Origin: Candidatus Alkanophaga volatiphilum
GTDB taxonomy: Archaea > Halobacteriota > Syntropharchaeia > Alkanophagales > B39-G2
Length of the DNA stretch: 64,000 bases
Direction of reading: 5' to 3'
Assembly: GCA_029259545.1 (NCBI GenBank)
Contig: JAPHEE010000003.1
Location: forward strand, 10,049 to 74,048
In this document: piece after piece, positions 16,554-61,434 of the stretch
Layout: each line of letters starts with the position of its first letter
Numbering within the stretch: position 1 is the stretch's first letter
Notes under the pieces: model-generated
What the model saw: only the letters and a program-made list of their open reading frames with translations
Told to the model about the DNA's origin: nothing
Database searches by the model: none
Program-made: the position numbers and the translations under genes

Positions 16554-17896
16554 TCAAAGAAGGAATTTCAGAAGCACACTTGGCGACAGTGCTTTTCTTT
16601 TCGGCAGAACGTTTGTCACGACGCCGCAGAGTAACTCTGCCAGTCTTTCGTCCATGGACGCATTTTTTATTATCCTATCCAGCAATAAGGGGCGTCTTAC
16701 GAGCCTTCTGAGGAGTGACCTCCGCCCTCGCTTAGCAAGGGGCTTCCCGGAGAGGTTGGGGGTGGTTCAGACGATCGGGCGGGGTCACCGCAGCCCTGCC
16801 CGCAGGATATACCCACGGCTCGCTCCGACTCGCATCACTTCGGAAAATTAACTGCCTCCACCCCAATCATCCCCGCCCGCAGGACGAACCTTCTTAGCGA
16901 CTGAAGGTAAAGAGTGCCTGAAGTCTGCGGCGAATTGTTTTTTCCATGCCGTGTCGTATTCTTTCAGCGTCCTTAGACTCGTGTCCTCAAGCTTCAAAGC
17001 CTTCGCAGCGACATCAGTAGCAAGCTTCCCGCTTTCGAGCGCTGCCCTCGCCGGTAAGGGGGTTCACAAAGGACGCGGCGTCCCCTATGAAGAGAATTCC
17101 GTTCGTGGCGGCTGCCGCCCGTCGGGACGAGCCAGCCTCTCGCCTTGCCTGCTTTGCGTCCTTTAGCCTTGTGGCACCGGTAATAAACCTTTTAAAGTAC
17201 GCGTTCAGGTTTATCTTCCTGTGCGCCGGCATCACGCCCACACCCACATTCGCCATGTCGTCACCAATCGGGAATATCCAGCCGTAACCTGGCAGCAACT
17301 TTTGCTCATAATGAAACTCAACGAAATCAAAACTTTCAACGCCGGAAAAGTATGCACGGACCGCGACGCCTACGTTGGCTCGCCTTTTTCTCTCCTCTTT
17401 TAACAGGTACCTCGTGAGTGCTGAAAATGCGCCGTCAGCGGCGATCACTACTTCTGAATTTATTTCAGTGATGTTACCATCATGTTTGCCCCTGACGCCC
17501 ACGACGCTTTTATTTTTCAACAGAGGCTCTTTAACCAGAACTTCGAAGAATTCGGCGCCCGCATCAACGGCATGACTTCGTAAAATCTCGTCGAATTCCA
17601 TTCGTGGAGCTACATAGCCGTAGGGTCTGTCTTAGGACTTTTTGCGCTCATGCGGTAGCCGCTCGGCGAGAATATGGTTATGCCATCGGACTTTTTGAAA
17701 CCGCTTCGCTCAATGGTTCCAAGGAGCCGCATTTCCTCTAGCGTCTTCAGCGAGCGTGGAGAAATGGCGTCGCCGCACACTTTTTCCCGCGGAAAACTTC
17801 TTCTATCAACTAGTAGAACGTCATAGCCGGGTCTTGCGAGGAAGTGTGCGCAGGCGCCCGCGGTCCAGCGCCGACGATGGTGACGTCCTTTCGCAT
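16554..17896 (-). pseudogene. geranylgeranyl reductase family (FAD-dependent) gene with at least 3 frameshifts, interrupted by a MITE-like insertion
   Basis: MRKDVTIVGAGP then shift; ...PYGYVAPRMEFDEILRSHAVDAGAEF; ...FIGDAASFVNPLTGEG then shift to IALESGKLATD...; tail LVRRPLLLDRIIKN downstream of the inserted repeat; begins directly after the hmgA stop. Confidence 0.7.
16715..16912 (+). mobile_element. MITE-like repeat copy A (about 198 nt, ACCTCC...GGAGGT-type terminal inverted repeats) inserted in the GGR 3' region
   Basis: homologous to 42542-42780 (GTGACCTCC...CTTAGCGACTGRAGGTAAA ends, shared internal blocks GGGCTTCC, GGTTGGGG, CGCAGGATRTACCCACGG, AAATTAACTRCCTCCA, ATCATCCCCGCCC). Confidence 0.55.
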
Positions 17897-17898
17897 CG

Positions 17899-19131
17899 TT
17901 AACGGTTCAGCCGCATGTGCGCCTCCGCAAGGTGTCGTGCGCCGAGAGCACCGATTAACGAGACCTCGCCGGCGAGCACTGCTGCCGCCACGATTTCAGC
18001 GAACTTCTTGGCGTTGCTGCCGGGCGGGTTGCCGGGACCGTAGACGCCCATTATGGAGAGCGCTTCTTTCTGCGTGCCGAGGGCGGTGCCGCCACCGACA
18101 GTTCCTACCTGTAACGACGGTAGCGTCACTGCAAAGTAAAGGTCGCCGTCCTCGGTGACCTCCGCCGTCGTGATCCCGTGCGAGCCCTCGACCACATGTG
18201 CCTCATCCTGACCGGTGGCGATGAATATCGCCGCGATTATGTTGGCGAAGTGAGCATTGAAGCCATAAGCTGCAGCCTGGGCGCTGCCGACGAAGCACTT
18301 CCGGTAGCAAACCTCAGCCATGGCTTCGGGCGTCGTCTTCAGCACCTCTTTGACCACCTCACGCTTTAAGACCACCTCCGAGACGACCGTTTTGCCCCGA
18401 CCGCGGAGAAAATTCATCGCCGACGGTTTTTTGTCGACGCAAAGATTGCCTGAGAGGGCTATGTGTTCTAAGTCAAGCTCCTGCTCTAGGAACTTAAGGA
18501 TTTCGTCTGTCGCGAACGTCGCCATGTTCATGCCCATGGCGTCGCCGGTGCCGTAAACGAAACGTAAGAACAGGTTCCTACCGACGATGTAAGGCTCGAT
18601 CCGTTGCAGCGTGATGAATGGGTCGGTGTCCTCCGCTATTTTCTTCAACTTTTCAAAGTTCTCTTCGATGAAGCGGGCGGCGCGCACGGCGTGCTCCGCG
18701 CTCTTAGCTTTCAGCACGGGACCCCGCGCCATGCCGTCCCGCAGCACGAAGGAGCGGGCGCCACCACTGCGGTTTATGGCGGTACAGCCTCGATTCACCG
18801 ACGCGACGAGGGCGCCTTCGGTGGTGGCTAGGGGTATAAAGTAGGAGCCGTCTGCGAATTCACCTTTAACCTGAAGAGGCCCTGCAATGCCCAGCGGGAG
18901 CTGCGCCACACCTATCATATTCTCGATGTTCGCCTTCATCGCCCTGTTGGCATCTATGGAGAAGTTGCCGATGTTTTCGAGACGCACGCCGGTTATGCGT
19001 TCGATTGCGCGACGACGTAGCTCCGTCGCCTTGAAACTATCGCCGCCCGTGTAATCCTCGACCTCGTACAGCTTTATCTCACCCTTCACGATCTTCTCCA
19101 CAATCTCTTCATCACGCACCTCAACGCTCAA
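17899..19131 (-). CDS. hmgA: hydroxymethylglutaryl-CoA reductase (class I)
   Basis: 410 aa; GDAMGMNMATFATDE and catalytic region motifs. Confidence 0.85.
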   Translation of the reverse strand: MSVEVRDEEIVEKIVKGEIKLYEVEDYTGGDSFKATELRRRAIERITGVRLENIGNFSIDANRAMKANIENMIGVAQLPLGIAGPLQVKGEFADGSYFIPLATTEGALVASVNRGCTAINRSGGARSFVLRDGMARGPVLKAKSAEHAVRAARFIEENFEKLKKIAEDTDPFITLQRIEPYIVGRNLFLRFVYGTGDAMGMNMATFATDEILKFLEQELDLEHIALSGNLCVDKKPSAMNFLRGRGKTVVSEVVLKREVVKEVLKTTPEAMAEVCYRKCFVGSAQAAAYGFNAHFANIIAAIFIATGQDEAHVVEGSHGITTAEVTEDGDLYFAVTLPSLQVGTVGGGTALGTQKEALSIMGVYGPGNPPGSNAKKFAEIVAAAVLAGEVSLIGALGARHLAEAHMRLNR

Positions 19132-37019: not shown

Positions 37020-37640
37020 ATAGCCTGCGGGCAGGCTGCGGTGAGCCGCTCGCCGTCGTGAGGCTCCCGGCTTCAGCCGTGGAGTAGCTCACAAAGTGCG
37101 GCACGAAGCTGCACTCCCCTCCGGCTTGGCACACAGCCCCCGCCCACACCATATAAGCATGGGCCCGTTTAAACGCCGTAGCTCCGAGGACGCCAATGAG
37201 GGGAGCAGCTGGGGATGGAGGCAGTTTGGAATCTACCTTGATCTCACTGCTTGTTGGGACTTTCGGGCGGGAAACCCTTTAGGTTTGCGTTGGTCTGGGC
37301 TCGGGGACGGACGCCTTTTCACATCACTGGCAACCGACTTCAGCACCCCCCGGCGCTCCGGTCTAAGGAGGCACTTTATCTTCCCGTTGCTTGCAAGACC
37401 CTGGGGATACAGGGGAGGCGGGTGGGGAAGTTTAAATACTTCAGTCTACTGAAGATTGGAATGTTTCTGATGACGCAAGGGGGAAGAGATGGGCAAATAG
37501 CCCATGCCTTAAGAGGCATGGGATGGGGGAGCTGTGAACCCCCCCGAATCCAGATGAAGCCTTAGCCGTAAAGGCAGGTGGAACGGGAGAAGCCCCGTCC
37601 GTAGGGCGGGGTAGTTCACCCTTTCTACCTTTCTATAGCT
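37020..37640 (+). repeat. 620-nt GC-rich non-coding composite repeat block (X-motif plus MITE-like segment)
   Basis: no ORF of 60 aa or more on either strand; 37115-37150 CTCCCCTCCGGCTTGGCACACAGCCCCCGCCC matches 61239-61270; 37385-37440 resembles the MITE left arm. Confidence 0.45.
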
Positions 37641-38188: not shown

Positions 38189-39427
38189 ATGGAAGAAAGT
38201 GAGAGGGTGCCGCCGGAAGCGAAGGACGATCTTTCGAGATACCTCATGGACAGGATAAGGCAGCTTGAAGAGATGAACTACCGCCTCAGGGAACGTATTT
38301 CCAGAATCGAGCGGGAGAAGCGATATCTGGAAGAACAGCGGCTGCGGTACGAGCGGGAGCTGAGGCGGCTGAGCAATGAGGTCGAGCGGCTGAAGTCTCC
38401 ACCACTGATCGTCGGGACGGTCATTGACGTTCTCGGCGACGGCAAGCTCCTTGTGAAAAGCAGCACCGGCCCCAAATTTGTGGTCAACGCTTCCGGCTTC
38501 TTGGACGTCGCGTCCTTGCGTCCCGGGACGCAAGTCGCTCTCAACCAGCAGACATTGTCCGTCGTCGAGGTCCTGCCTTCGATGAAAGATCCCATGATAT
38601 ATGGGATGGAAGTGATCGAGGCGCCTGACGTCGACTACGACCAGATAGGCGGACTTGAAAGGCAGATACAGGAGTTGAGAGAGGCAGTAGAGTTGCCGCT
38701 GATCGAGCCTGAGAGGTTCGAGCGGATAGGGGTTGAGCCGCCGAAAGGCGTCCTCCTCGTGGGACCGCCGGGCTGTGGAAAAACGCTTCTTGCAAAGGCA
38801 GTAGCGAAAAGGACGCTCGCCACGTTCATCCGTGTAGTGGGCTCGGAACTCGTCCAGAAGTACATAGGGGAGGGCGCCCGCCTCGTGAGGGAGCTCTTCG
38901 CCCTCGCCCGTGAAAAGGCACCCTCGATAATCTTCATAGATGAAATAGATGCTATAGGCGCCCGGCGTGTGGATGACGGCACTTCTGGCGACAGGGAGGT
39001 ACAAAGGACGATGATGCAGCTCCTTGCCGAGATCGACGGCTTCGACCCGCGGGGTGACGTCAAGATAATAGCGGCGACGAACCGCCCCGATATTCTCGAT
39101 CCGGCGTTGTTGCGTCCTGGGCGCTTTGACAGGATTATAGAAATACCGATGCCAGATTACGAAGCCCGCATAAAAATATTTGAGATACATGCGAGAAAAT
39201 TGCGGCTGGGCGACGACGTGGACTTCGGGAAGCTCGCTGCGATGACCGAAAACGCAACGGGCGCCGATATAAAAGCAATAACGATGGAAGCTGGGATGTT
39301 CGCGGTGCGGGAGAACAAAGAATGTGTTGAGATGGTAGACTTCGAACGAGCGGTACGGAAAGTCATGGCGGGCGGGCAGAGAGAAATACTAAAGGAGCTT
39401 AAAGAGCCAGGGGTGATGTTCGCCTAA
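38189..39427 (+). CDS. pan: proteasome-activating nucleotidase (AAA ATPase)
   Basis: N-terminal coiled coil, GPPGCGKT Walker A, AAA SRH region. Confidence 0.85.
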
Positions 39428-39464
39428 TAATATTTTCACTATTTACAAAATGTCGCTAAGAAAG

Positions 39465-39484
39465 CCCCTCACTTCAGTGAGGGG
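39465..39484 (+). terminator. GC hairpin CCCCTCACTTCAGTGAGGGG after pan
   Basis: perfect 8-bp stem immediately 3' of pan. Confidence 0.35.
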
Positions 39485-39508
39485 ATGAATTAGGGGTGGT
39501 AGGTGGTT

Positions 39509-39531
39509 TTTATACTCTGAAATTAGTATAA
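39509..39531 (+). repeat. IS200/IS605-type left-end hairpin TTATACT-ctgaaatt-AGTATAA
   Basis: perfect 7-bp inverted repeat a few nt upstream of the tnpB start. Confidence 0.45.
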
Positions 39532-39535
39532 AGAA

Positions 39536-40754
39536 TGATGGAAATAACAAAGACCATCAGGTGTAAACTCATCGGACTAACGAAGCGAAAGTTAGACTTA
39601 ATCGAGAATACGACAACTTCCAACACTACTTGAAGACAGGAGAAGATAGAGGCGTTTATTCTGCAACGAAACAGCAAGGGAAAAGAGCCTATCGAAAAAT
39701 TGACCTTAAAAAAGAATATCCTCTTGTCATAAGAAAAGACCTGATGGATATTTGGAAGACTGATAACAAGCTCGCCAAATACTGGGCTCGCATTCCCGTT
39801 CACGGTGTTAGAGGCGGTATTAAGGTTGCTTTAGCTCATCAACCCTTCAACTTCGAGGAGTGGGGAATTTGTGGCTCTAAACTCGTTAGAAAGAATGGTG
39901 AGTTCTACCTCCATGTGACGGTCAAAAAGAATGTTGAACTCAGGAAGGAATACTCATCCATCATAGCAATCGATATGGGAGCGAGATGGGTGGGGGTGTC
40001 GGTGGCGCCCCACCGCAGTAAGCCAAAGTTCTACGGCAAGAGGGTGAGAGAGGTTAGAGGAAAGTATTTCCGGTTGAGGAGGAAGCTTGGAAGGGAGAAG
40101 AAACTACTGGCGATAAAGAGGACAGGACATAAGGAGAAGAGAGTTGTGAATAATGAGCTACACAAGATAGCAAAGGAAATTGTTGATGAAGCTGAGAAGC
40201 ACAACGCAATAATTGCAGTCGGTAATTTGAATGGGGTTAGAAAGAACAACAGGGGAAGAAAAGTGAACAGGAAAGTTAATTCGATGCCTTTCTACAAACT
40301 GAAGGAATATATCAAGTATAAAGCCCTTGAGAGAGGAATTGCAGTGATAGAAGTTCCAGAATTTAACACATCAAAGCAATGTTCTCGTTGCGGCTCGATG
40401 CGAGCTGAAAGACCTTCTCAAGGATTATTCATCTGCAAGGATTGTGGCTACCAGATTAATGCCGATGTGAACGGAGCTAAAAATATATTGAAGCGAGCCC
40501 AGGGCTATATGCTCTGGGCAGGGGCTTCTGTGACCCAGCCCGAAGGGGGGAGCAGGTACATCCTGCACACTCCCCAACCTCCCAAGGCTTCCGGTGGAAG
40601 CCCTGACTTTAGTCGGGAGGAGGTCACGAGGCTTAACTACCAGTCTATCGTAAATGCGACGAATCCTTTGCCATTTGAATTTAAATCCAGCAAGAACGCC
40701 GTTGTAAACAAAAAAGTTTTTATACGTATAATCCTCGCTTTCTCTTGTGAGTAA
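39536..40754 (+). pseudogene. tnpB: IS605/IS1341-family TnpB (RNA-guided nuclease family) with an N-terminal frameshift
   Basis: MMEITKTIRCKLIGLTKRKLDLIEN in one frame, then EYDNFQHYLKTGEDRGVY... in the ORF-track frame (39630-40754); RuvC-like and CSRCGS...CKDCGY zinc-finger motifs; no tnpA adjacent. Confidence 0.7.
40515..40627 (-). mobile_element. MITE-like repeat copy E (internally deleted, reverse orientation) inside the tnpB 3' end
   Basis: CTGCACACTCCCCAACCTCCCAAGGCTTCCGGTGGAAGCCCT...GGGAGGAGGTCAC is the reverse complement of the copy-B left arm. Confidence 0.45.
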
Positions 40755-42123
40755 GCTTAGAGGCTTGATAACGTATATTGCAGGACTGTTACTGACAGTT
40801 ATTGTAGTTAGTGGAACAGACCTCAACGCGAGTCAGATGGTATCCGTCACGATATTCATCGCTATAATTCTCGGAGCTATACTTTTTTGGAGATTAAGGC
40901 TGGCATTCGCGCTCGCCGGGGTCGCTGTTCTCCTGTTCTCGAGAGTATTAGACGTCCCGCATCTCATGAAGTACGCGCATTTCGATGTAATTCTTTTCCT
41001 TATGGGTATGATGACAGTAATAGGTTTTCTTGAGGAACAAGGTTTCTTTGAGCACGTCCTAGAAATACTTTTTAAGTACTTCAGCAGGAGCGGTCTTATG
41101 CTTATTTCTGGCCTTCTACTGATGTCCGCCGTTTTTGCAGCGCTCGTTGACGAAGTAACATCAATATTATTCATAACGGCACTGACGTTGCGCATAACTA
41201 AACATTACGACCTCGATCCACTACCGATGGTCATAGCTACCGTAATGGCTACTAACGTCGGCAGCAGCTTCACCGTTGTAGGCAACCCCATAGGCGTACT
41301 CATTGCATTTGAAGGAAACCTGACGTTCCTTGATTTCATCAGATGGGCCACTCCTATTGGTGTTATGGTGTTGATCTTGACCATAATACTTGCGTCCTTG
41401 TATTGGCGCCCTTACATTACGAAGCTTAATGATATGATGAACCTTTTAGGAGAGCCCAATCTTGGGGAGGAAGCAGATAAGCGTAAAATGAGAGTATCAT
41501 GGGCAATTTTCCTCTGCACGATAGGCGGTCTTGTATTACATCATCCTTTAGAGGAACTGTTGCACCTCGAAAGGAACACTTTATTGTTAGCGGTCCCACT
41601 AATAATGGCGGGAGTGACGCTGTTGATAAGCGGGGAGAGGGCAAGAGAGCTTATTGAGCGTCGAGTTGATTGGTGGACGTTAGCATTTTTTATATTCTTC
41701 TTCGCAACGGTAGGAACGCTTGCATACACTGGCGTCACGGAAATCATAGCCGAAGCTATCATAGCATACGCTGGCGGCAACCCAATTTTAATAACCGCTT
41801 TGATAACGTGGACTGCTGGCGTACTGAGCGCATTTATGGACAACATACTGGCAGTGGCTACACTGGTATCAGTCGTACACGGACTTGAAGCTTATGGTTA
41901 CCATGTATTCCCAACATGGTGGGGCATGCTTTTTGGCGCTTGCTACCTCGGTAATTTGACGATGATAGGTAGCACCGCGAATATCGTGGCGCTTGGCATA
42001 CTTGAGAAGGAAAGAGGCCGCCATATCCATTTTTTCGATTGGTTTAAGCCCGGATTGGTGATTGCAGTGCCTCAGCTGACGCTCGCAACGATATTGCTAC
42101 TGCTCCAACATTTCGTGTTTTAA
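40747..42123 (+). CDS. ArsB/NhaD-superfamily ion transporter (permease)
   Basis: 458 aa polytopic membrane protein with duplicated permease halves; start overlaps the tnpB end. Confidence 0.6.
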   Translation: MSKLRGLITYIAGLLLTVIVVSGTDLNASQMVSVTIFIAIILGAILFWRLRLAFALAGVAVLLFSRVLDVPHLMKYAHFDVILFLMGMMTVIGFLEEQGFFEHVLEILFKYFSRSGLMLISGLLLMSAVFAALVDEVTSILFITALTLRITKHYDLDPLPMVIATVMATNVGSSFTVVGNPIGVLIAFEGNLTFLDFIRWATPIGVMVLILTIILASLYWRPYITKLNDMMNLLGEPNLGEEADKRKMRVSWAIFLCTIGGLVLHHPLEELLHLERNTLLLAVPLIMAGVTLLISGERARELIERRVDWWTLAFFIFFFATVGTLAYTGVTEIIAEAIIAYAGGNPILITALITWTAGVLSAFMDNILAVATLVSVVHGLEAYGYHVFPTWWGMLFGACYLGNLTMIGSTANIVALGILEKERGRHIHFFDWFKPGLVIAVPQLTLATILLLLQHFVF

Positions 42124-42342
42124 TTTGGTTACTGTGATAACGATTATTACGAAGGTGAAAAGCAGTAAATCGTAACGTCTCCATACGTTATCAATGTAGG
42201 GGCGTCCGCCTTTCGATCTCAAATTTGGTTTGCCCTCGCACGGTGACGAAGGCGCTGCGGGCGTTTTCAAAAGTCCGCCAACCCATGTAACATACGGACG
42301 GTATGTTGCGCATTTATATGTTTTCGTCGCCGAAGTCGTGAC

Positions 42343-43310
42343 GTGAGCCGTAAGGTTGGAATATATATCCGGGTTAGCACGCAGGAGCAAGCTGAAAGCG
42401 GTATTAGTATCGAAATACAACGCTCCTTACTCTACAAGTTCTGTGAGCTGCACGGCTGGGAAGTTCACAAAGAATATGTGGACGCCGCCAAGAGTGCGGC
42501 GACCATAGAGCGAAAGGCGTTGCAGGAGCTTCTTGAAGACTGTGACCTCCTCCCCTGCTCACGCAAGAGGGCTTCCACCGGAAGCCTTGGGAGGTTGGGG
42601 AGTGTGCAGCACAAAGCTACGCTCCCCGCCGGGCGGGTCACGACGCCCCTGACCGCAGGATGTACCCACGGACTCGCCCAGACCTACATTAAACTTTCGG
42701 AGTATAAAAAATTAACTACCTCCAACCTCCCCAATTCATCCCCGCCCTCAGGACGAGCCCTCTTAGCGACTGGAGGTAAAATGGAGAAGTAGATACAGTC
42801 GTTGTGTTTAAGCTGGATAGACTTTCGAGGTCGCTTCGTGACCTGATCCTATTAATGGACGAGCTTAAAAGGTACGGCGTCGACTTCGTGAGCGTCACCG
42901 AACGCATAGACACGACAACCGCCGCCGGGAAACTCATGTTTCATATAATCGGGGCGTTTGCGGAATTCGAGCGGGAGATGACGATCGAGAGGACGAAGCT
43001 GGCGATGGACAAGAAGGTTAAGGAGGGCTCGTTTGTCGGGCGGCTCCCGCTTGGCTATCGCTACGACGAGAGCCGCCGCATAGTCCTTTCGGAGGACGCC
43101 GAAACCGTCCGCTGCGTGTTCTTTGACTTCCTCGAGACGCAGAACGTCAGTGAGGTCGCCCGGAAACATAACATGTCGAGGATGCAAGTTTACAGAATAC
43201 TTAGAAACCATTTTACGCTGGCATTGTCCACTGGCGGGACGTGGAGTGGCGGGGCAATCACCCTAAGATCATCAGCAAGAGGACGTTCGAAAAAGTCCAA
43301 AGGATTTTAA
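42343..43310 (+). pseudogene. small serine recombinase (resolvase/invertase family) disrupted by a MITE-like insertion
   Basis: N-part VGIYIRVSTQEQ (catalytic Ser)...LLEDCD, then 239-nt insert, then DTVVVFKLDRLSRSLRDL...GAFAEFEREMTIERT and C-terminal HTH; the two halves lie in different frames. Confidence 0.7.
42542..42780 (+). mobile_element. MITE-like repeat copy B (239 nt)
   Basis: the insert splitting the recombinase; ends GTGACCTCC... and ...CTTAGCGACTGGAGGTAAA; homologous to copy A. Confidence 0.6.
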
Positions 43311-43338
43311 ATTCGAGGAAGAACAGGAGCCGTAAGAG

Positions 43339-43905
43339 TCACAAAGTGAAAGAGTAGGTCTTCTCCTTAAGGCTTCTCCCCTCGAGTTCAAAGAGGTGCA
43401 CGATGCACGAGCGCCGGCTTACGTCGAGGAACATGAACGACGGCTTCCCGGAGCCACCACCGCCGCCCCAGACGCCCGTTGCGGAGCCGGGGTTCAGAAG
43501 TAAAACCTTCTTGCCGCCGGCGAGCCCTCGCATTAAGACCTGCGGGCGGTGCGTATGCCCTGAAATCAAAACATCGACGGCAAGCGTTTCCGCGATCCGA
43601 CATAGTTCCTTTACATTTCCCCTGGGGTAAATCCCATCGCCGTGTATCAGCCCTATTTTTAAGCCTTCAATCTCGGCAACGTCCCACTTCTTGAGGTTTA
43701 AATAGTCCATGTTGCCCCTGACGACGTGTAACTCACCGAACTCGGCGTAAAAGTCCAAGAGTTTCTCATCGGTGAGGTCGCCGGTGCAGAAGACCTGGCT
43801 CGTGCCGCCACTCATTATCCTCTCCACGATAACATCATCTATTTTCTTCGCCCTTGAAGGGATGTGCGTGTCTCCAATGACGAGAAGCCTCACATCCCCG
43901 CCCAT
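43339..43905 (-). CDS. metallophosphoesterase (YfcE/MJ0936-like)
   Basis: LLVIGDTHIP, GHTHRPQV, GSATG motifs. Confidence 0.7.
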   Translation of the reverse strand: MGGDVRLLVIGDTHIPSRAKKIDDVIVERIMSGGTSQVFCTGDLTDEKLLDFYAEFGELHVVRGNMDYLNLKKWDVAEIEGLKIGLIHGDGIYPRGNVKELCRIAETLAVDVLISGHTHRPQVLMRGLAGGKKVLLLNPGSATGVWGGGGGSGKPSFMFLDVSRRSCIVHLFELEGRSLKEKTYSFTL

Positions 43906-44648
43906 CCGCCCTCGCCCATGTCGTCGTCGGTTCTATAACACACAACCTCCTGCCTCTTTATCGGGAGCCACCTGAAGACATGCGGCGCCTCCCTTCTAAC
44001 ACGCTCTTTCAGCTCTTTCCACTCATTCAGGTAAGAGCGCCCGGCTTTTGCAAGTTCTGGTGGATACTCGCCAATGAGCATATCTTCTTCGTATGCTACG
44101 CCTTCGAGCCCTACCCAACTGTAATACTCGCGAAGCCTTTCAATAAGCTCACGCTTCTCGCTCTCGCTTGTCTCTTCCTCAATGATATAAAAGCCCACAG
44201 GTATGTACTTCGAGCCACTGTAGACCTGACCCACGCAAATAGCCTTTACTCTGCGTAAGTTTCCCTTCCTTATTTCTTCCTCAATAAGCGCCTCTACTTC
44301 CTGACGCCGCCCTCCTGCCTCTTCCAAAGCTTTTATCACCGTCGAGGGGCGTAACGGCGAAAATGTAGAAAGCAAGCCTGCAAGCAGTAGCTCTAAAGAT
44401 GGCTCCTTTACAACTCTATCATACACCCTCAAAACCTTCCTTGCAACTTCTTCTGAAAAGCTGTCCTTTTTATACCTATACGAGCCTCGAACGTTCTCCA
44501 CGAGGCTCCGGCGCTCAAGCTCGCGCAGCGCACGCCGCACATCATCCAAAGGCTCGTCGAGGCGGGCAGCAAGCTCTTCGGCGCTAAGCTCCTCGCCCCC
44601 CTCTTTGAGGTATTTCAATACCTTCACGGGCGTGGGCATCTCTAACAT
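43890..44648 (-). CDS. hypothetical protein with N-terminal winged-helix-like region
   Basis: 252-aa ORF; N-terminus resembles wHTH (VRRALRELERRSLVE). Confidence 0.4.
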   Translation of the reverse strand: MLEMPTPVKVLKYLKEGGEELSAEELAARLDEPLDDVRRALRELERRSLVENVRGSYRYKKDSFSEEVARKVLRVYDRVVKEPSLELLLAGLLSTFSPLRPSTVIKALEEAGGRRQEVEALIEEEIRKGNLRRVKAICVGQVYSGSKYIPVGFYIIEEETSESEKRELIERLREYYSWVGLEGVAYEEDMLIGEYPPELAKAGRSYLNEWKELKERVRREAPHVFRWLPIKRQEVVCYRTDDDMGEGGWAGM

Positions 44649-44688
44649 TCTAGGTATTTTGTTCTTGCCCCTGTTTTAATCTTGCTCA

Positions 44689-45336
44689 TCAGCAGTCACG
44701 TAAAGCCTGCTCTATCAAACGCCTTGCCCACCTTAGCTTTCGCTGCTTCGTCGCACTTACGCTTTTATCTTCGAAGTCGAAGCCGACGAGCTTTATGGAG
44801 GCGGCACCGAACTCCTTCGCGATGAAAACGCAGCGATCGCCGTCGGTGAAGCCGCCGAAGTTGTGGACGTGCGGCGGCAGCGGTCTGGCTTGCGTCGTGC
44901 AGAGTACCCTACTAAGCTCCGGCAGCACCCTTCTTATCATATCGATGTTGTCGCCGTGGGCGTGCGCCACGACGATAGCTCCGAGCCTGCTTGCGTAGAT
45001 GATATCAGGAAGATAGCCGTCGAGGTCGCTTACGATGATGTCGGGGAGCACGCCGCACTCCAAGACGACGGAAGTGGCGCCGTCCGCCGCCAAAACTACG
45101 TACTCAAAAGGGTCGATATTCCTCAGCTCCTCTCGGAGACATGGGGCAGCCCCGCATACAAGGACGTCCTTCCCCTCGATCACACCCCTCAGCTCCTCCA
45201 CGCTCACCTCCTTCCAGCTCATCCTTGAAATAGCCTCCGCTGCTACCGCCGCCGCCTCCTCATCCCTCTTCCGGTCATAGCCAAAGTCCGCTAAAATACG
45301 CTCGTATATCGGCTCCCACTCCTCAAACCGCATCAT
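44689..45336 (-). CDS. MptE-like 6-hydroxymethylpterin diphosphokinase family (DUF115) protein
   Basis: VLVCGAAPCL...VVLAADGATSVVLECGVLPDIIVSDLDG pattern. Confidence 0.5.
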   Translation of the reverse strand: MMRFEEWEPIYERILADFGYDRKRDEEAAAVAAEAISRMSWKEVSVEELRGVIEGKDVLVCGAAPCLREELRNIDPFEYVVLAADGATSVVLECGVLPDIIVSDLDGYLPDIIYASRLGAIVVAHAHGDNIDMIRRVLPELSRVLCTTQARPLPPHVHNFGGFTDGDRCVFIAKEFGAASIKLVGFDFEDKSVSATKQRKLRWARRLIEQALRDC

Positions 45337-45381
45337 ATTATTAAGGGGGCTCGCACAAAAATAGCACCGACGGCGGCAGCT

Positions 45382-46560
45382 ATGAAATACATAACCTTAA
45401 TAGGCGACGGCATGGCGGATTACCGCATCGCTGAGCTCGGCAATAAGACCGCACTCCAGGCTGCGAGCACGCCAAACATGGACTTCATAGCAGCAACGGG
45501 ACGTTGCGGCGTCACGAGAACCATTCCCGACGAGATGCCAGCGGGTAGCGATATCGCCATCCTCTCCATACTTGGCTACGACCCCCAAAAATACTACACC
45601 GGAAGAGGTCCGCTGGAAGCCCTAGGCAGGGGCGTGGAGCTGGATGGCAAGGATATTGCGTTCAGGTGCAACCTCGTAACTGTGAGCGGCGAGAGACTCG
45701 TGGATTACAGCGCCGGACATATTTCAAGTGAAGAGGCGAGGGTGTTGATCGAGGAACTTAATGAACGTCTTCCTGATGTCGAAATATATGCGGGCGTGGG
45801 ATACAGGCACATCTTGGTGCTGCGGGATGCGTTCGATGGCGAGATTCCCGAATGCACGCCACCGCATGACATGCTTGGCGAGAACTTCCACACGCACCTG
45901 CCTGAGAACGAGGCTCTCAAGCAACTCATCTTAAAGTCAAGAGAAATACTCGAGACGCACGAAATAAACAAGAAAAGGGAAAAAGAAGGGAAGCAAAAGG
46001 CAAATATGATATGGCTCTGGGGCGGAGGCGTGAAGCCTGAGCTCCCAAGCTTTAAGGAAAAATACGGTGTTCATGGCTCGGTGATTTCGGCAGTGGACCT
46101 GATTAAGGGCATTGGGCGAGCCTTGAGGCTTGTTATCGTCGATGTGCCCGGCGCCACGGGCTACTTAGATACAAACTACGAAGGAAAAGCAAGATATGCC
46201 CTTAAAAGTCTTCAGCGCAATGATTTTGTGCTTGTACACGTCGAGGCGCCGGACGAGGCGGCTCACGAGGGGGATGTCGCCGCCAAAATCAGAGCGATTG
46301 AAGACTTCGACGAGAAAGTGGTTGGGAACGTCCTTGCGGGCGTGCCTGATCTCGGCGCCGCTCGAATCTTAGTAATGCCTGACCATTATACGCCGGTCTC
46401 GGTGCGAACGCATACGAAGGAGCCCGTGCCGTTCGCTATCGCAGAGCTACCAAGCGGCGACGAGGGCGACTCCGTAAAAAGTTTCGACGAATTTTCAGCA
46501 CGCAAGGGAGCGTTTGGGAACACACCTGTTGAAGAGCTTATGAAGATGCTCATTTGCTGA
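45382..46560 (+). CDS. apgM: 2,3-bisphosphoglycerate-independent phosphoglycerate mutase, archaeal type
   Basis: LIGDGMADY N-terminus and ApgM family length/motifs. Confidence 0.8.
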   Translation: MKYITLIGDGMADYRIAELGNKTALQAASTPNMDFIAATGRCGVTRTIPDEMPAGSDIAILSILGYDPQKYYTGRGPLEALGRGVELDGKDIAFRCNLVTVSGERLVDYSAGHISSEEARVLIEELNERLPDVEIYAGVGYRHILVLRDAFDGEIPECTPPHDMLGENFHTHLPENEALKQLILKSREILETHEINKKREKEGKQKANMIWLWGGGVKPELPSFKEKYGVHGSVISAVDLIKGIGRALRLVIVDVPGATGYLDTNYEGKARYALKSLQRNDFVLVHVEAPDEAAHEGDVAAKIRAIEDFDEKVVGNVLAGVPDLGAARILVMPDHYTPVSVRTHTKEPVPFAIAELPSGDEGDSVKSFDEFSARKGAFGNTPVEELMKMLIC

Positions 46561-59821: not shown

Positions 59822-61186
59822 GTGGTGCAGGTGAGGAAGTTTGATATCTTGGTCGTTGGAGGTGGTCCAGGAGGCTTTGTCTCTGCGCTGCTTACGAAGC
59901 GCCTAAGCCCCGAAAAGTCGGTGGCTCTGGTCAGAAGGGACGAAAAAGCCATCATCCCCTGCGGAGTTCCCTACGTCTTCGGAACGCTGAAAGACGCCGA
60001 CAAGGACATCCTACCCGATGATCCTCTGAAAAACGCTGGCGTTGAGGTGGTGATCGGCGAGGTATCCTCCATAGACCTCAAGGAGAAGAAGGTTGTGTTA
60101 TCCGGCGGCGAGGAGCTGGGCTACGAAAAGCTCGTTTTGGCGACCGGCTCGTACCCCGTCAGAATTCCCGTCAAGGGCACCGACCTGGGCAACGTGTTCT
60201 ACGTGGTCAAGAGCTACGACGCCACGGCTCAGCTGAAAGATGCTATCGAAAAAGCCAAGAACGTGGTCATCCTCGGAGGGGGCTTCATAGGCGTCGAAGT
60301 GGCTGAAGACGTTGCGAGGAACTACGAGGACAAGAAGGTAACGATCGTAGAGATGCTTCCTCACTGCTTGCAGAGAAACTTCGACCCGGAGTTCTGCGAG
60401 CTGGCTGAGGAGAAGCTGAAGTCTCTCGGCGTCGAGATCAAGACCAATACTCTCGTCCAAGAGCTGGTGGGGGAGGGAGGAGTCGTAAAGTCGGCTAAGC
60501 TCTCAACGGGCGAAGAGATTCCAGCAGATCTGGTGATAATAGCGGGAGGGACTAGGGCGAACGCGGAGCTCGCAGAGAAAGCTGGGCTGAGGATGGGCGC
60601 ATTCGGAGCAATAGTCGTAGACGACTTTTGCCGGACAAGCGATGCCAACGTGTGGGCTGTTGGGGACTGCGCCGAGAAGAGAGACCCCTTCACCGGAAAG
60701 CCCACGCCCGTGATGTTGGCTTCGATAGCGGCTAGGGAGGGGCGGGTTGCGGCGCTGAACATCTTGGGAATAGGCTCCAAGGGGCTCAGGGGAGGAACCG
60801 TTCCCGTGTTCTCCACCATAATCGACGACTTGGCGATGGGGGCTGTGGGCATGACCGAGTCTGCTGCCAAAGCCGAGGGCTTCGACGTCATAGTCGGAAA
60901 CGCCACAGCCCCGGACAAACACCCAGGTGCGCTTCCTGGGATGAGGGAGCTTAGGGTTAAGCTGATCTTCTCCAAAGTCGATGGGAGGCTGCTGGGGGCG
61001 GAGGCTGCCGGGGGCGCTAGCGTAGGCGAACTGGTAAACGTATTGGGCGTAGCTGCTCAGCTCGGCGCAACGGTGTACGACCTTGTCACCATGGAGTTTG
61101 GTACGCACCCGAGGCTAACCGCGTCGCCGATAGCATACCCCATCCTCGCTGCTGCGCAGGATGCGCTGGCTAAGCTGCTAAAGTGA
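59822..61186 (+). CDS. FAD-dependent pyridine nucleotide-disulfide oxidoreductase (CoA-disulfide reductase / NADH oxidase family)
   Basis: ILVVGGGPGG, single redox Cys IIPCGVPY, second Rossmann VVILGGGFIGVE. Confidence 0.8.
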   Translation: MVQVRKFDILVVGGGPGGFVSALLTKRLSPEKSVALVRRDEKAIIPCGVPYVFGTLKDADKDILPDDPLKNAGVEVVIGEVSSIDLKEKKVVLSGGEELGYEKLVLATGSYPVRIPVKGTDLGNVFYVVKSYDATAQLKDAIEKAKNVVILGGGFIGVEVAEDVARNYEDKKVTIVEMLPHCLQRNFDPEFCELAEEKLKSLGVEIKTNTLVQELVGEGGVVKSAKLSTGEEIPADLVIIAGGTRANAELAEKAGLRMGAFGAIVVDDFCRTSDANVWAVGDCAEKRDPFTGKPTPVMLASIAAREGRVAALNILGIGSKGLRGGTVPVFSTIIDDLAMGAVGMTESAAKAEGFDVIVGNATAPDKHPGALPGMRELRVKLIFSKVDGRLLGAEAAGGASVGELVNVLGVAAQLGATVYDLVTMEFGTHPRLTASPIAYPILAAAQDALAKLLK

Positions 61187-61238
61187 CCCCCTCACGGGCG
61201 GGTTTCCGCCGACGGGGTGCGGCTCGGACGAGCCGCTC

Positions 61239-61434
61239 CCCGGCTTGGCACGCAGCCCCCGCCCGCCAATTTCTTTACGGAGCCCTCTCGGCGAAGGTGA
61301 CCTCCCGCTCGGCAAGGAGCTTCCGCCGGGGTTGGGGAGGTTGTGGGGGGGTGTGCGGCACGGGCTGCGCGCCCCGCCGAGCGGGTCACCCTCAGGACGG
61401 AGCATCCTACGACCGAGGGTAAAACCCTCTTTCC
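61239..61434 (+). mobile_element. composite repeat: X-motif (61239-61270) plus short MITE-like copy D (61297-61434)
   Basis: CTCCCCGGCTTGGCACGCAGCCCCCGCCC matches 37115-37150; GTGACCTCCCGCTCGGCAAGGAGCTTCC...GGTTGGGGAGG...GGGTCACC...GAGGGTAAAA parallels copies A and B. Confidence 0.45.

Follow-up and report, generated by a model that had tools for sequence, protein, structure and literature searches.

Introduction

The closest described relatives of the element considered here are the archaeal palindrome-associated transposable elements (PATEs), which are terminal-only derivatives of IS605- and IS1341-type transposons (Dyall-Smith et al. 2011, PMC3119063; Gomes-Filho et al. 2015, PMC4615843). 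We describe here a 234-nt insertion, referred to as copy B, that splits a serine recombinase gene in a 64,000-nt stretch of contig JAPHEE010000003.1 from Candidatus Alkanophaga volatiphilum (the window, to whose coordinates all positions refer). Copy B resembles the PATEs in being too short to encode a protein, in lacking terminal inverted repeats and a target duplication, in its sub-terminal palindromes, in having ends in common with TnpB-bearing elements, and in its 4-nt 5' targeting sequence and right-end RNA of the type seen in HgcC and the sense overlapping transcript RNAs (sotRNAs). Unlike the haloarchaeal PATEs, it resides in Ca. Alkanophagales (Syntropharchaeia), has a TTAC target and a ...GGAGGTCAC end, and is associated with a TnpB that has glycine at the RuvC-II position. 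We found no description of this IS200/IS605-PATE class in the lineage of Ca. Alkanophaga in the literature searched.

The comparison systems are IS608 of Helicobacter pylori, and ISGst together with the PATE-like elements of Geobacillus stearothermophilus (Meers et al. 2023, PMC10055086). As in these, copy B is inserted 3' of TTAC, which is the IS608 target, without duplication and with asymmetric ends that carry hairpins; the corresponding omega RNA would span the 3' end of tnpB and the right end of the element and take its guide from the flank, and the donor would be protected by a right end of TCAC rather than TTAC. Unlike these systems the present one is archaeal and has no tnpA in the window, and the activities of TnpA, TnpB and the RNA are predictions from sequence. 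The RNA shares with the Rfam family HgcC, found in Methanocaldococcus jannaschii, a 5' hairpin with a GUGACCC loop, two 3' hairpins, GAGGAGGUCA, and an unstructured tail, although unlike HgcC members the window copies score below 50 and are therefore relatives of the family by Rfam's criterion.

The repeat was originally predicted to be a miniature inverted-repeat transposable element (MITE). Like classical MITEs, which derive from DDE transposons, copy B is short, non-coding, multi-copy, dependent on a transposase in trans, and gene-disrupting, and it is indeed a mobile repeat, but the terminal inverted repeats and usual target-site duplications of MITEs are both absent. The name is thus a loose one, and PATE fits better on account of the 234-nt size, the lack of duplication and of inverted repeats, and ends that are homologous to those of a TnpB element. 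We consider it very probable that copy B is a PATE in which the left and right ends of a TnpB-only IS1341-type transposon have been joined, and that its insertion killed the recombinase gene. The event itself is an ordinary result of a well-described class of mobile element, with a transposon relic disabling a non-essential gene.

Boundaries of the insertion

The 5' part of the recombinase gene has a GTG start and the catalytic serine in YIRVSTQEQ, and extends to LLED and the first base of a Cys codon (Table 1). Read in the frame from 42343 (coordinate modulo 3 = 1), the N-terminal catalytic part is VGIYIRVSTQEQ...LLEDC, and this frame (MSRKVGIYIRVSTQEQAESGISIEIQRS...ALQELLEDC) then passes into unrelated sequence and stops at 42792. 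The downstream half reads in a different frame (modulo 3 = 0) as ..VDTVVVFKLDRLSRS... and also ...NGEVDTVVVFKLDRLSRSLRDL..., as far as 43310, so that the two halves lie in different frames with the repeat between them, as had been claimed for this locus.

A protein search with the repaired gene identified two intact orthologues that cross the junction uninterrupted, P0001 (98% identity over the full length; LLEDCKNGEIDTVVVF) and P0002 (87%, named Candidatus Alkanophagales; LLKDCRSGEIDTVVVF). The contigs encoding P0001, L100 and L101, are syntenic with the window at 98.5-99.2% nucleotide identity and have in common with it an upstream TnpB element, and each contains the empty site GAAGACT/GTAAAAACGGAGAA without an insert (slashes mark element boundaries). 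Where L100 reads ...CTTGAAGACT GTAAAAACGGAGAAATAGATAC... across the junction, the window reads ...CTTGAAGACT, then 42542-42775, then GTAAAATGGAGAAGTAGATAC...; put otherwise, the filled site is GACT/element/GTAAAA and the empty site is GACT/GTAAAAAC. The insert is therefore 234 nt long, with the assignment 42544-42777 being equivalent because GT is present at both junctions, and the net surplus over L100 is 233 nt. TTAC occurs once, next to the left end; it was present before the insertion and has not been duplicated. This filled and empty pair gives the element ends, the TTAC target or transposon-adjacent motif, and the start of the guide to the base, and it bears out the expectation that the locus would provide a clean insertion site and that intact orthologues would settle the junction and the question of a target-site duplication.

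The repeat had been put at 239 nt, and although it is a repeat, the intact allele in L100 and L101 shows that its size is 234 nt. The difference arises because five target bases, TTTAC (GTAAA on the forward strand, 42776-42780), were counted in; the empty site of L100 already contains GTAAAAA at the place where TTTAC was taken to be part of the repeat. As TTTAC precedes all of the repeat copies, the larger count is understandable.

We also considered whether the gene might naturally contain this sequence, as a linker, as an intron- or intein-like segment, or as DNA excised developmentally by the recombinase itself. Some serine recombinase genes (SpoIVCA, XisF) do lie in or beside excisable intervening elements, and the recombinase has a sub-threshold NCBIfam similarity to XisF. 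Nonetheless, the two orthologues at 98% and 87% identity have no insert and the empty site in L100 and L101 refutes the proposal; moreover, the recombinase frame, when continued through the insert, meets a stop at 42790, the halves are in different frames, the insert has IS200/IS605 ends that are common to dozens of copies at unrelated sites, and two further frameshifts mean that no product could be restored. The chance that the segment is native is practically negligible, and an insertion with exact boundaries, a TTAC target and no target duplication is what we observe.

The interrupted gene and its lesions

The host gene does encode a serine recombinase, and the repaired product matches PF00239 Resolvase (E=3e-43) and PF07508 Recombinase (E=1.8e-10) in Pfam. 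The original prediction of a canonical small resolvase/invertase with a helix-turn-helix (HTH) domain does not hold, however. Small serine resolvases and invertases are ~180-200 aa long with an N-terminal catalytic domain and a C-terminal DNA-binding domain of the HTH_7 type, whereas large serine recombinases have catalytic, Recombinase, and zinc-ribbon/coiled-coil domains and are about 450-700 aa in length. The repaired protein is ~255-258 aa, has no C-terminal HTH_7, and its sole HTH signal is a sub-threshold HTH_23 match within the Recombinase domain; it contains the first two domains of the large serine integrases and lacks the zinc-ribbon/coiled-coil part. Among solved structures its best match is the catalytic domain of the TP901-1 integrase (PDB, E=3.7e-35), sub-threshold NCBIfam similarity links it to the N-terminal halves of CcrB, CcrC and XisF, and a protein search finds hundreds of archaeal and candidate phyla radiation homologues that are uniformly ~250-260 aa long. 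The host protein is thus a short integrase-like serine recombinase, nearest to the catalytic half of the large serine integrases.

In relatives that are 82% identical in DNA, the recombinase occupies the same slot between genes for a CitMHS transporter and a metallophosphoesterase. Because this chromosomal position is shared, the recombinase is a resident gene that has been lost by the window strain. An IS607 unit, in which a serine recombinase accompanies TnpB, was considered and rejected, since the CitMHS transporter gene lies between the two, the domain order is wrong for an IS607 TnpA, and the relatives have the recombinase without tnpB. We also note a patch at 42414-42428 with seven substitutions in 15 nt relative to L100 (GGCG to AATA, T to C, T to C, and C to T), changing IEAQRSSL to IEIQRSLL in a gene that is otherwise ~99% identical; this dense patch may be a small conversion tract.

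Removing the insert was expected to restore the resolvase, but it does not. Excision of 42542-42775 in silico and re-translation gives ...LLEDCKMEK followed by a stop, and the frame is not restored because one A of an A5 run immediately beside TTAC is missing (L100 GTAAAAACGG, window GTAAAATGG). There is a second single-base deletion at 43208 (aaCCCa to aaCCa), where RNPFYAGIVHWRDVEWRGNHPKIIS... becomes RNHFTLALSTGG... and RILRNPFYAGIVHWRDVEWRGNHPKIISKRTFEKVQRIL... becomes RILRNHFTLALSTGGTWSGG... and then a stop. The 3' part thus carries two 1-nt deletions, with the ancestral stop situated after KSHKVKE. Cuts of other lengths do restore the frame, though only through arithmetical coincidence, with removal of 239 nt giving LLEDYGEVD and removal of 233 nt giving LLEDCDNGEVD, as against the ancestral LLEDCKNGE(I/V)D. 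These were rejected as the true excision because the junction residues they produce (Y, or CD-N) occur in no orthologue and because the cuts fall inside the conserved TTAC or GTCAC, and they provide a caution that frame-restoring cuts do not prove boundaries, the biological cut being 234 nt. With three lesions, the recombinase gene is a decaying pseudogene.

Could these lesions be artefacts, with the repeat misjoined in assembly and the 1-nt deletions being sequencing errors? The element is multi-copy, repeats are a classic cause of misjoins, and all three lesions involve repeats or homopolymers. Against this, the source sequence belongs to a 136.7-kb SPAdes contig (~424x coverage) that is 100% identical to the window over 6450 nt (39343-45792; L193, ENA ERZ26872905 NODE_12), each flank can be followed in L100 with single-base precision, and the element has canonical ends and a junction that coincides exactly with TTAC. 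Furthermore, the indels relative to L100 (12 aligned, plus the missing junction A) are all in intergenic DNA, in the insertion sequence, or in the recombinase, and there are none in ~7 kb of neighbouring housekeeping coding sequence, which is unlike random error. It is because of the ~424x short-read assembly and this distribution of indels that we judge the 1-nt deletions to be real and set sequencing error aside, and an assembly artefact is very improbable. In the annotation of L193 the two pieces of the recombinase appear as distinct Resolvase genes, 149 and 168 aa long, which the present analysis would correct.

Copy B as a derivative of a TnpB element

Read on its sense strand (the minus strand of the window), copy B is TTAC/CTCCAGTCGCTAAG...GGGGAGGAGGTCAC/AGTCTTCAAG. 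It has no open reading frame of its own, containing only read-through from the flanking gene and short antisense frames. It is composed of two pieces, both inverted with respect to a TnpB-only element that lies 2 kb upstream (39447-40627): one corresponds to the 3' end of tnpB and the DNA beyond it (40480-40627) and the other to the DNA upstream of tnpB (39447-39527). A 35-nt core of copy B, CCACCGGAAGCCTTGGGAGGTTGGGGAGTGTGCAG, is repeated exactly on the other strand at 40563-40597, and a 51-nt block is repeated at 16861-16911. The left-end half contains a GTCGCTAAG box, an imperfect sub-terminal palindrome (CTCGTCC-TGA-GGGCGGG), GATGAATTGG, and a TATA-like box, TTTTTTATAC, that also occurs upstream of tnpB. 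Neither of the two ends, CTCCAGTCGCTA... and ...GGAGGAGGTCAC, is the reverse complement of the other; hairpins are plainly present at the right end (GGCTTCC-GGT-GGAAGCC), and the left-end hairpin is perfect in the full-length element (CCCCTCAC-TTCA-GTGAGGGG) and imperfect in copy B. From these alignments copy B is an internal-deletion derivative of the upstream IS200/IS605 element.

The shared right-end pattern has three matches in the window, where none is expected (100 shuffles), and we scanned metagenome contigs for the same pattern. The 87 stretches recovered yield 30 unique complete elements, comprising 24 of 192-253 nt, one of 353 nt, and five of 1001-1198 nt, and copy B matches the ends of 24 other 192-253-nt elements and the five longer ones from the metagenome contigs and the window. 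The same ends are found on relatives of full length (1181-1198 nt); among the five long elements it is the window's own 1181-nt one for which tnpB has been demonstrated. In 30 of 35 unique insertions the left end directly follows TTAC, and in three more the motif is one base off; because the search did not require TTAC, this count is unbiased. The base before TTAC is T in 26 of the 35 and positions further out are random, while every right end finishes with the ...GGAGGTCAC motif and is followed by unrelated, random flank. A loose 17-base pattern, run against genome contigs, gave chance matches only, in unrelated bacteria.

The tnpB open reading frame of the upstream element (39630-40754) matches PF07282 (E=2e-23) and the NCBIfam guided_TnpB model (173 bits against a cutoff of 100), and the element is a candidate source of TnpB in trans for copy B, as its full-length relative. 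The window, L100 and L101 all have it at the same site, but the syntenic loci of 82% identity (L102-L105) do not, and in these only 94 nt separate the proteasome-ATPase and CitMHS genes. The lengths agree with these loci being an empty site for the full element (94 nt versus 19+78 nt), but divergence of the intergenic DNA prevents the boundary from being fixed to the base. The tnpB frame passes through the right end into the flank (40628-40754), and, compared with L100, loss of one nucleotide at 40652 extends TnpB from 349 to 374 aa. In relatives the position of the tnpB stop varies between 99 nt before and 276 nt beyond the end of the element, and the loop of the final hairpin is a frequent location.

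The presence of copy B in the window and its absence from L100 make it strain-specific and show that it has been mobile in the past. A candidate autonomous partner of the family is encoded on metagenome contig Ga0209411_100061 (L177), which at ~4.5-5.0 kb has a left-end-like hairpin, CGCCCTTCAGGACGGGGATGAATTGG, followed by a Y1/HUH TnpA (YHFVWIPKYRK...MPDHIHLFVS). This tnpA is apparently inserted into another tnpB, and the contig is from the same kind of sample.

The right-end scaffold and its predicted guide

Rfam HgcC (RF00062) aligns end to end with each of the three window copies in the sense orientation of the element, with 37.5 bits for the full-length element (40520-40640), 30.6 for copy B (42651-42529), and 20.9 for copy A (16798-16702), a second short copy in the window; E-values range from 2.7e-5 for copy B to 0.013. 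The HgcC consensus end, GAGGAGGUCA plus an unstructured tail, corresponds to the transposon end plus flank. HgcC has been identified with the 3'-end RNA of IS1341 tnpB genes and of PATEs (PMC4615843). The RNAs that overlap the 3' ends of these tnpB genes are today interpreted as omega RNAs.

An initial consensus from MAFFT and RNAalifold on 80 right ends was poor, with 14 pairs and dominated by invariant GUGACC/GGUCAC columns, and was replaced by a hand-specified structure, a covariance model (R1) built from 80 right ends, and re-alignment of 94 matches. R1 scores the full-length element at 107.8 bits, copy B at 97.4, and copy A at 47.5; copy B retains every helix of the model, and copy A is without one hairpin. 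In the re-alignment 92.3% of paired cells are complementary as against 80.0% in shuffles (0/500 reach the observed value), changes on both sides occur in 21 of 28 pairs (254 cells versus 86 in shuffles), and sliding the partners reduces pairing to 42-54%. Single-sequence folds are weak, with z-scores of -0.8 to -3.0, and were not relied on. The right end of copy B therefore has a conserved RNA-type structure, and the signal is strong despite the caveats considered below.

The HgcC match to copy B extends 13 nt beyond the element end, to 42529. RNAs of IS200/IS605 TnpB systems extend into the flank and take the guide there (PMC10055086), and the corresponding segment of a copy-B omega RNA would lie in the recombinase flank (Table 1). 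The predicted target of TnpB with this RNA is TTAC-AGTCTTCAAGAAGCTC. TTAC followed by the guide is exact in L100 and L101 only, and the window copy of the guide sequence is preceded by TCAC; the empty site would thus be cleavable and the occupied site immune, which is the classic arrangement. The left-end half may supply a promoter through its TTTTTTATAC box, and TnpB from the neighbouring element could use the copy-B RNA in trans.

Proposed history of the locus

We propose that copy B was mobilized as single-stranded DNA by a Y1 (HUH) TnpA encoded elsewhere, and that it inserted directly 3' of TTAC in codons 67-68 (TGT AAA) of the recombinase gene, in antisense orientation and without target duplication. 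The insertion killed the recombinase gene, with the two 1-nt deletions (42778-42781 and 43208) probably acquired since then. The right-end scaffold, if transcribed, would read into the recombinase flank to give the guide AGUCUUCAAGAAGCUC, and TnpB acting in trans with the copy-B RNA could then cleave uninterrupted alleles (TTAC plus guide), promoting retention or homing of the insertion.

Several points weigh against parts of this proposal. No TnpA was found in the window (tblastn best E=0.89), which leaves current mobility conjectural, and the missing A beside TTAC could in principle predate the insertion. The three HgcC scores (37.5, 30.6, 20.9) are all below the Rfam gathering score of 50. 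The alignment on which covariation was scored had itself been fitted to the model, and the covariation could partly reflect hairpins in single-stranded DNA that are read by TnpA rather than RNA. The candidate promoter is a TATA-like motif only, and transcription of the scaffold is a prediction. Finally, the TnpB of this family has glycine in place of the canonical RuvC-II glutamate in 21/21 copies (motif IAxG[ND]L; window 39630-40754 and loci L100-L187), with the RuvC-I and RuvC-III aspartates retained. This arrangement is predicted to be rearranged and not dead, and corresponds to the presumed-active 'RIIr' class (Altae-Tran et al., PMC10691335).

One alternative to this history is that copy B is an inert, decayed transposon scar, its RNA half unused and its sole effect being gene inactivation, which we rate as a real possibility somewhat short of an even chance. 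It is favored by the lack of a TnpA in the window by tblastn, by the greater degeneracy of copy A (47.5 bits, with one hairpin lost), by the decay of the host genes of both copies, and by the sub-threshold HgcC scores, whereas copy B itself has lost none of the family helices (97.4 bits) and is identical to the neighbouring TnpB element over 35 nt, its insertion is younger than the ~1-1.5% nucleotide divergence from L100, and intact tnpB copies and the TnpA-bearing L177 are present in metagenome contigs with family members. At the other extreme, copy B could be a minimal self-contained omega-RNA cassette, with the tnpB promoter (TATA) and scaffold, that operates as a gene drive in populations of Ca. 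Alkanophaga together with the RuvC-II-Gly TnpB encoded 2 kb away. We consider this unlikely; if true, an intact allele (TTAC plus the 16-nt target in L100 and L101) would be cleaved and converted to the disrupted form, and loss of a conserved recombinase would be actively propagated rather than being a passive accident. Returning to copy B as a PATE, we note that the associated TnpB belongs to a little-studied class with glycine at the RuvC-II position, and that the locus offers a candidate compact TnpB/omega-RNA pair from a thermophilic alkane oxidizer for biochemistry.

Features of the window

Table 1. Positions of the recombinase pseudogene, copy B and related features in the window.
Feature	Position	Strand	Details
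Serine recombinase pseudogene, whole	42343-43360	+	Split after codon 66 by the repeat
Recombinase pseudogene, 5' part	42343-42541	+	From open reading frame list and translation; L100 1-3183 collinear
Recombinase pseudogene, 3' part (..KNGEVDTVVVFKLDRLSRS...)	42776-43360	+	From translation and alignment to P0001 and L100
Copy B, 234-nt non-autonomous IS200/IS605 derivative (PATE, very probably)	42542-42775	-	Absent from L100 and L101
Copy B right-end half, omega-RNA/HgcC-like scaffold	42542-42652	-	Ends ...GGAGGUCAC at transposon end
Copy B left-end half	42690-42775	-	Aligned with left end of TnpB element, 39447-39527; DNA folds
TTAC target / transposon-adjacent motif	42776-42779	- (GTAA on +)	In L100 empty site, GACTGTAAAAAC
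A4 run with 1-nt deletion beside TTAC	42778-42781	+	A5 in intact allele
Second frameshift, CCC (L100) to CC	43208-43210	+	Truncates PF07508 Recombinase domain
Predicted guide segment of copy-B omega RNA, AGUCUUCAAGAAGCUCCUGC	42522-42541	-	Recombinase flank past right end
TnpB-only IS200/IS605 (IS1341-type) element, 1181 nt	39447-40627	+	TTAC at 39443-39446; ends GGAGGAGGTCAC
Copy A, 192 nt	16715-16906	-	TTAC before it (GTAA at 16907-16910)
Mini-element of related family, 122 nt, TTAC/CCTCGGTCGTAGG...GGGAGGTCAC/	61297-61418	-	R1 29.5 bits, E=3.6e-5

Copy A is situated in the 3' end of a geranylgeranyl-reductase-like gene (16715-17900, minus strand) that is broken by two frameshifts, near 17610 and 17040, and is thus a second decaying pseudogene associated with an element. 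In the 122-nt mini-element, the left end is joined almost directly to the RNA scaffold, and a weaker relative (61183-61262; 9.8 bits) that ends GGGGGTCAC lies just downstream of it, possibly in tandem. A scaffold-like match on the plus strand at 37522-37619 (R1 23.2 bits, E about 1e-3), ending GGGGTAGTTCAC, has an HTH gene on one side and a frame of uncertain status on the other, and may represent a different PATE/omega-RNA family.

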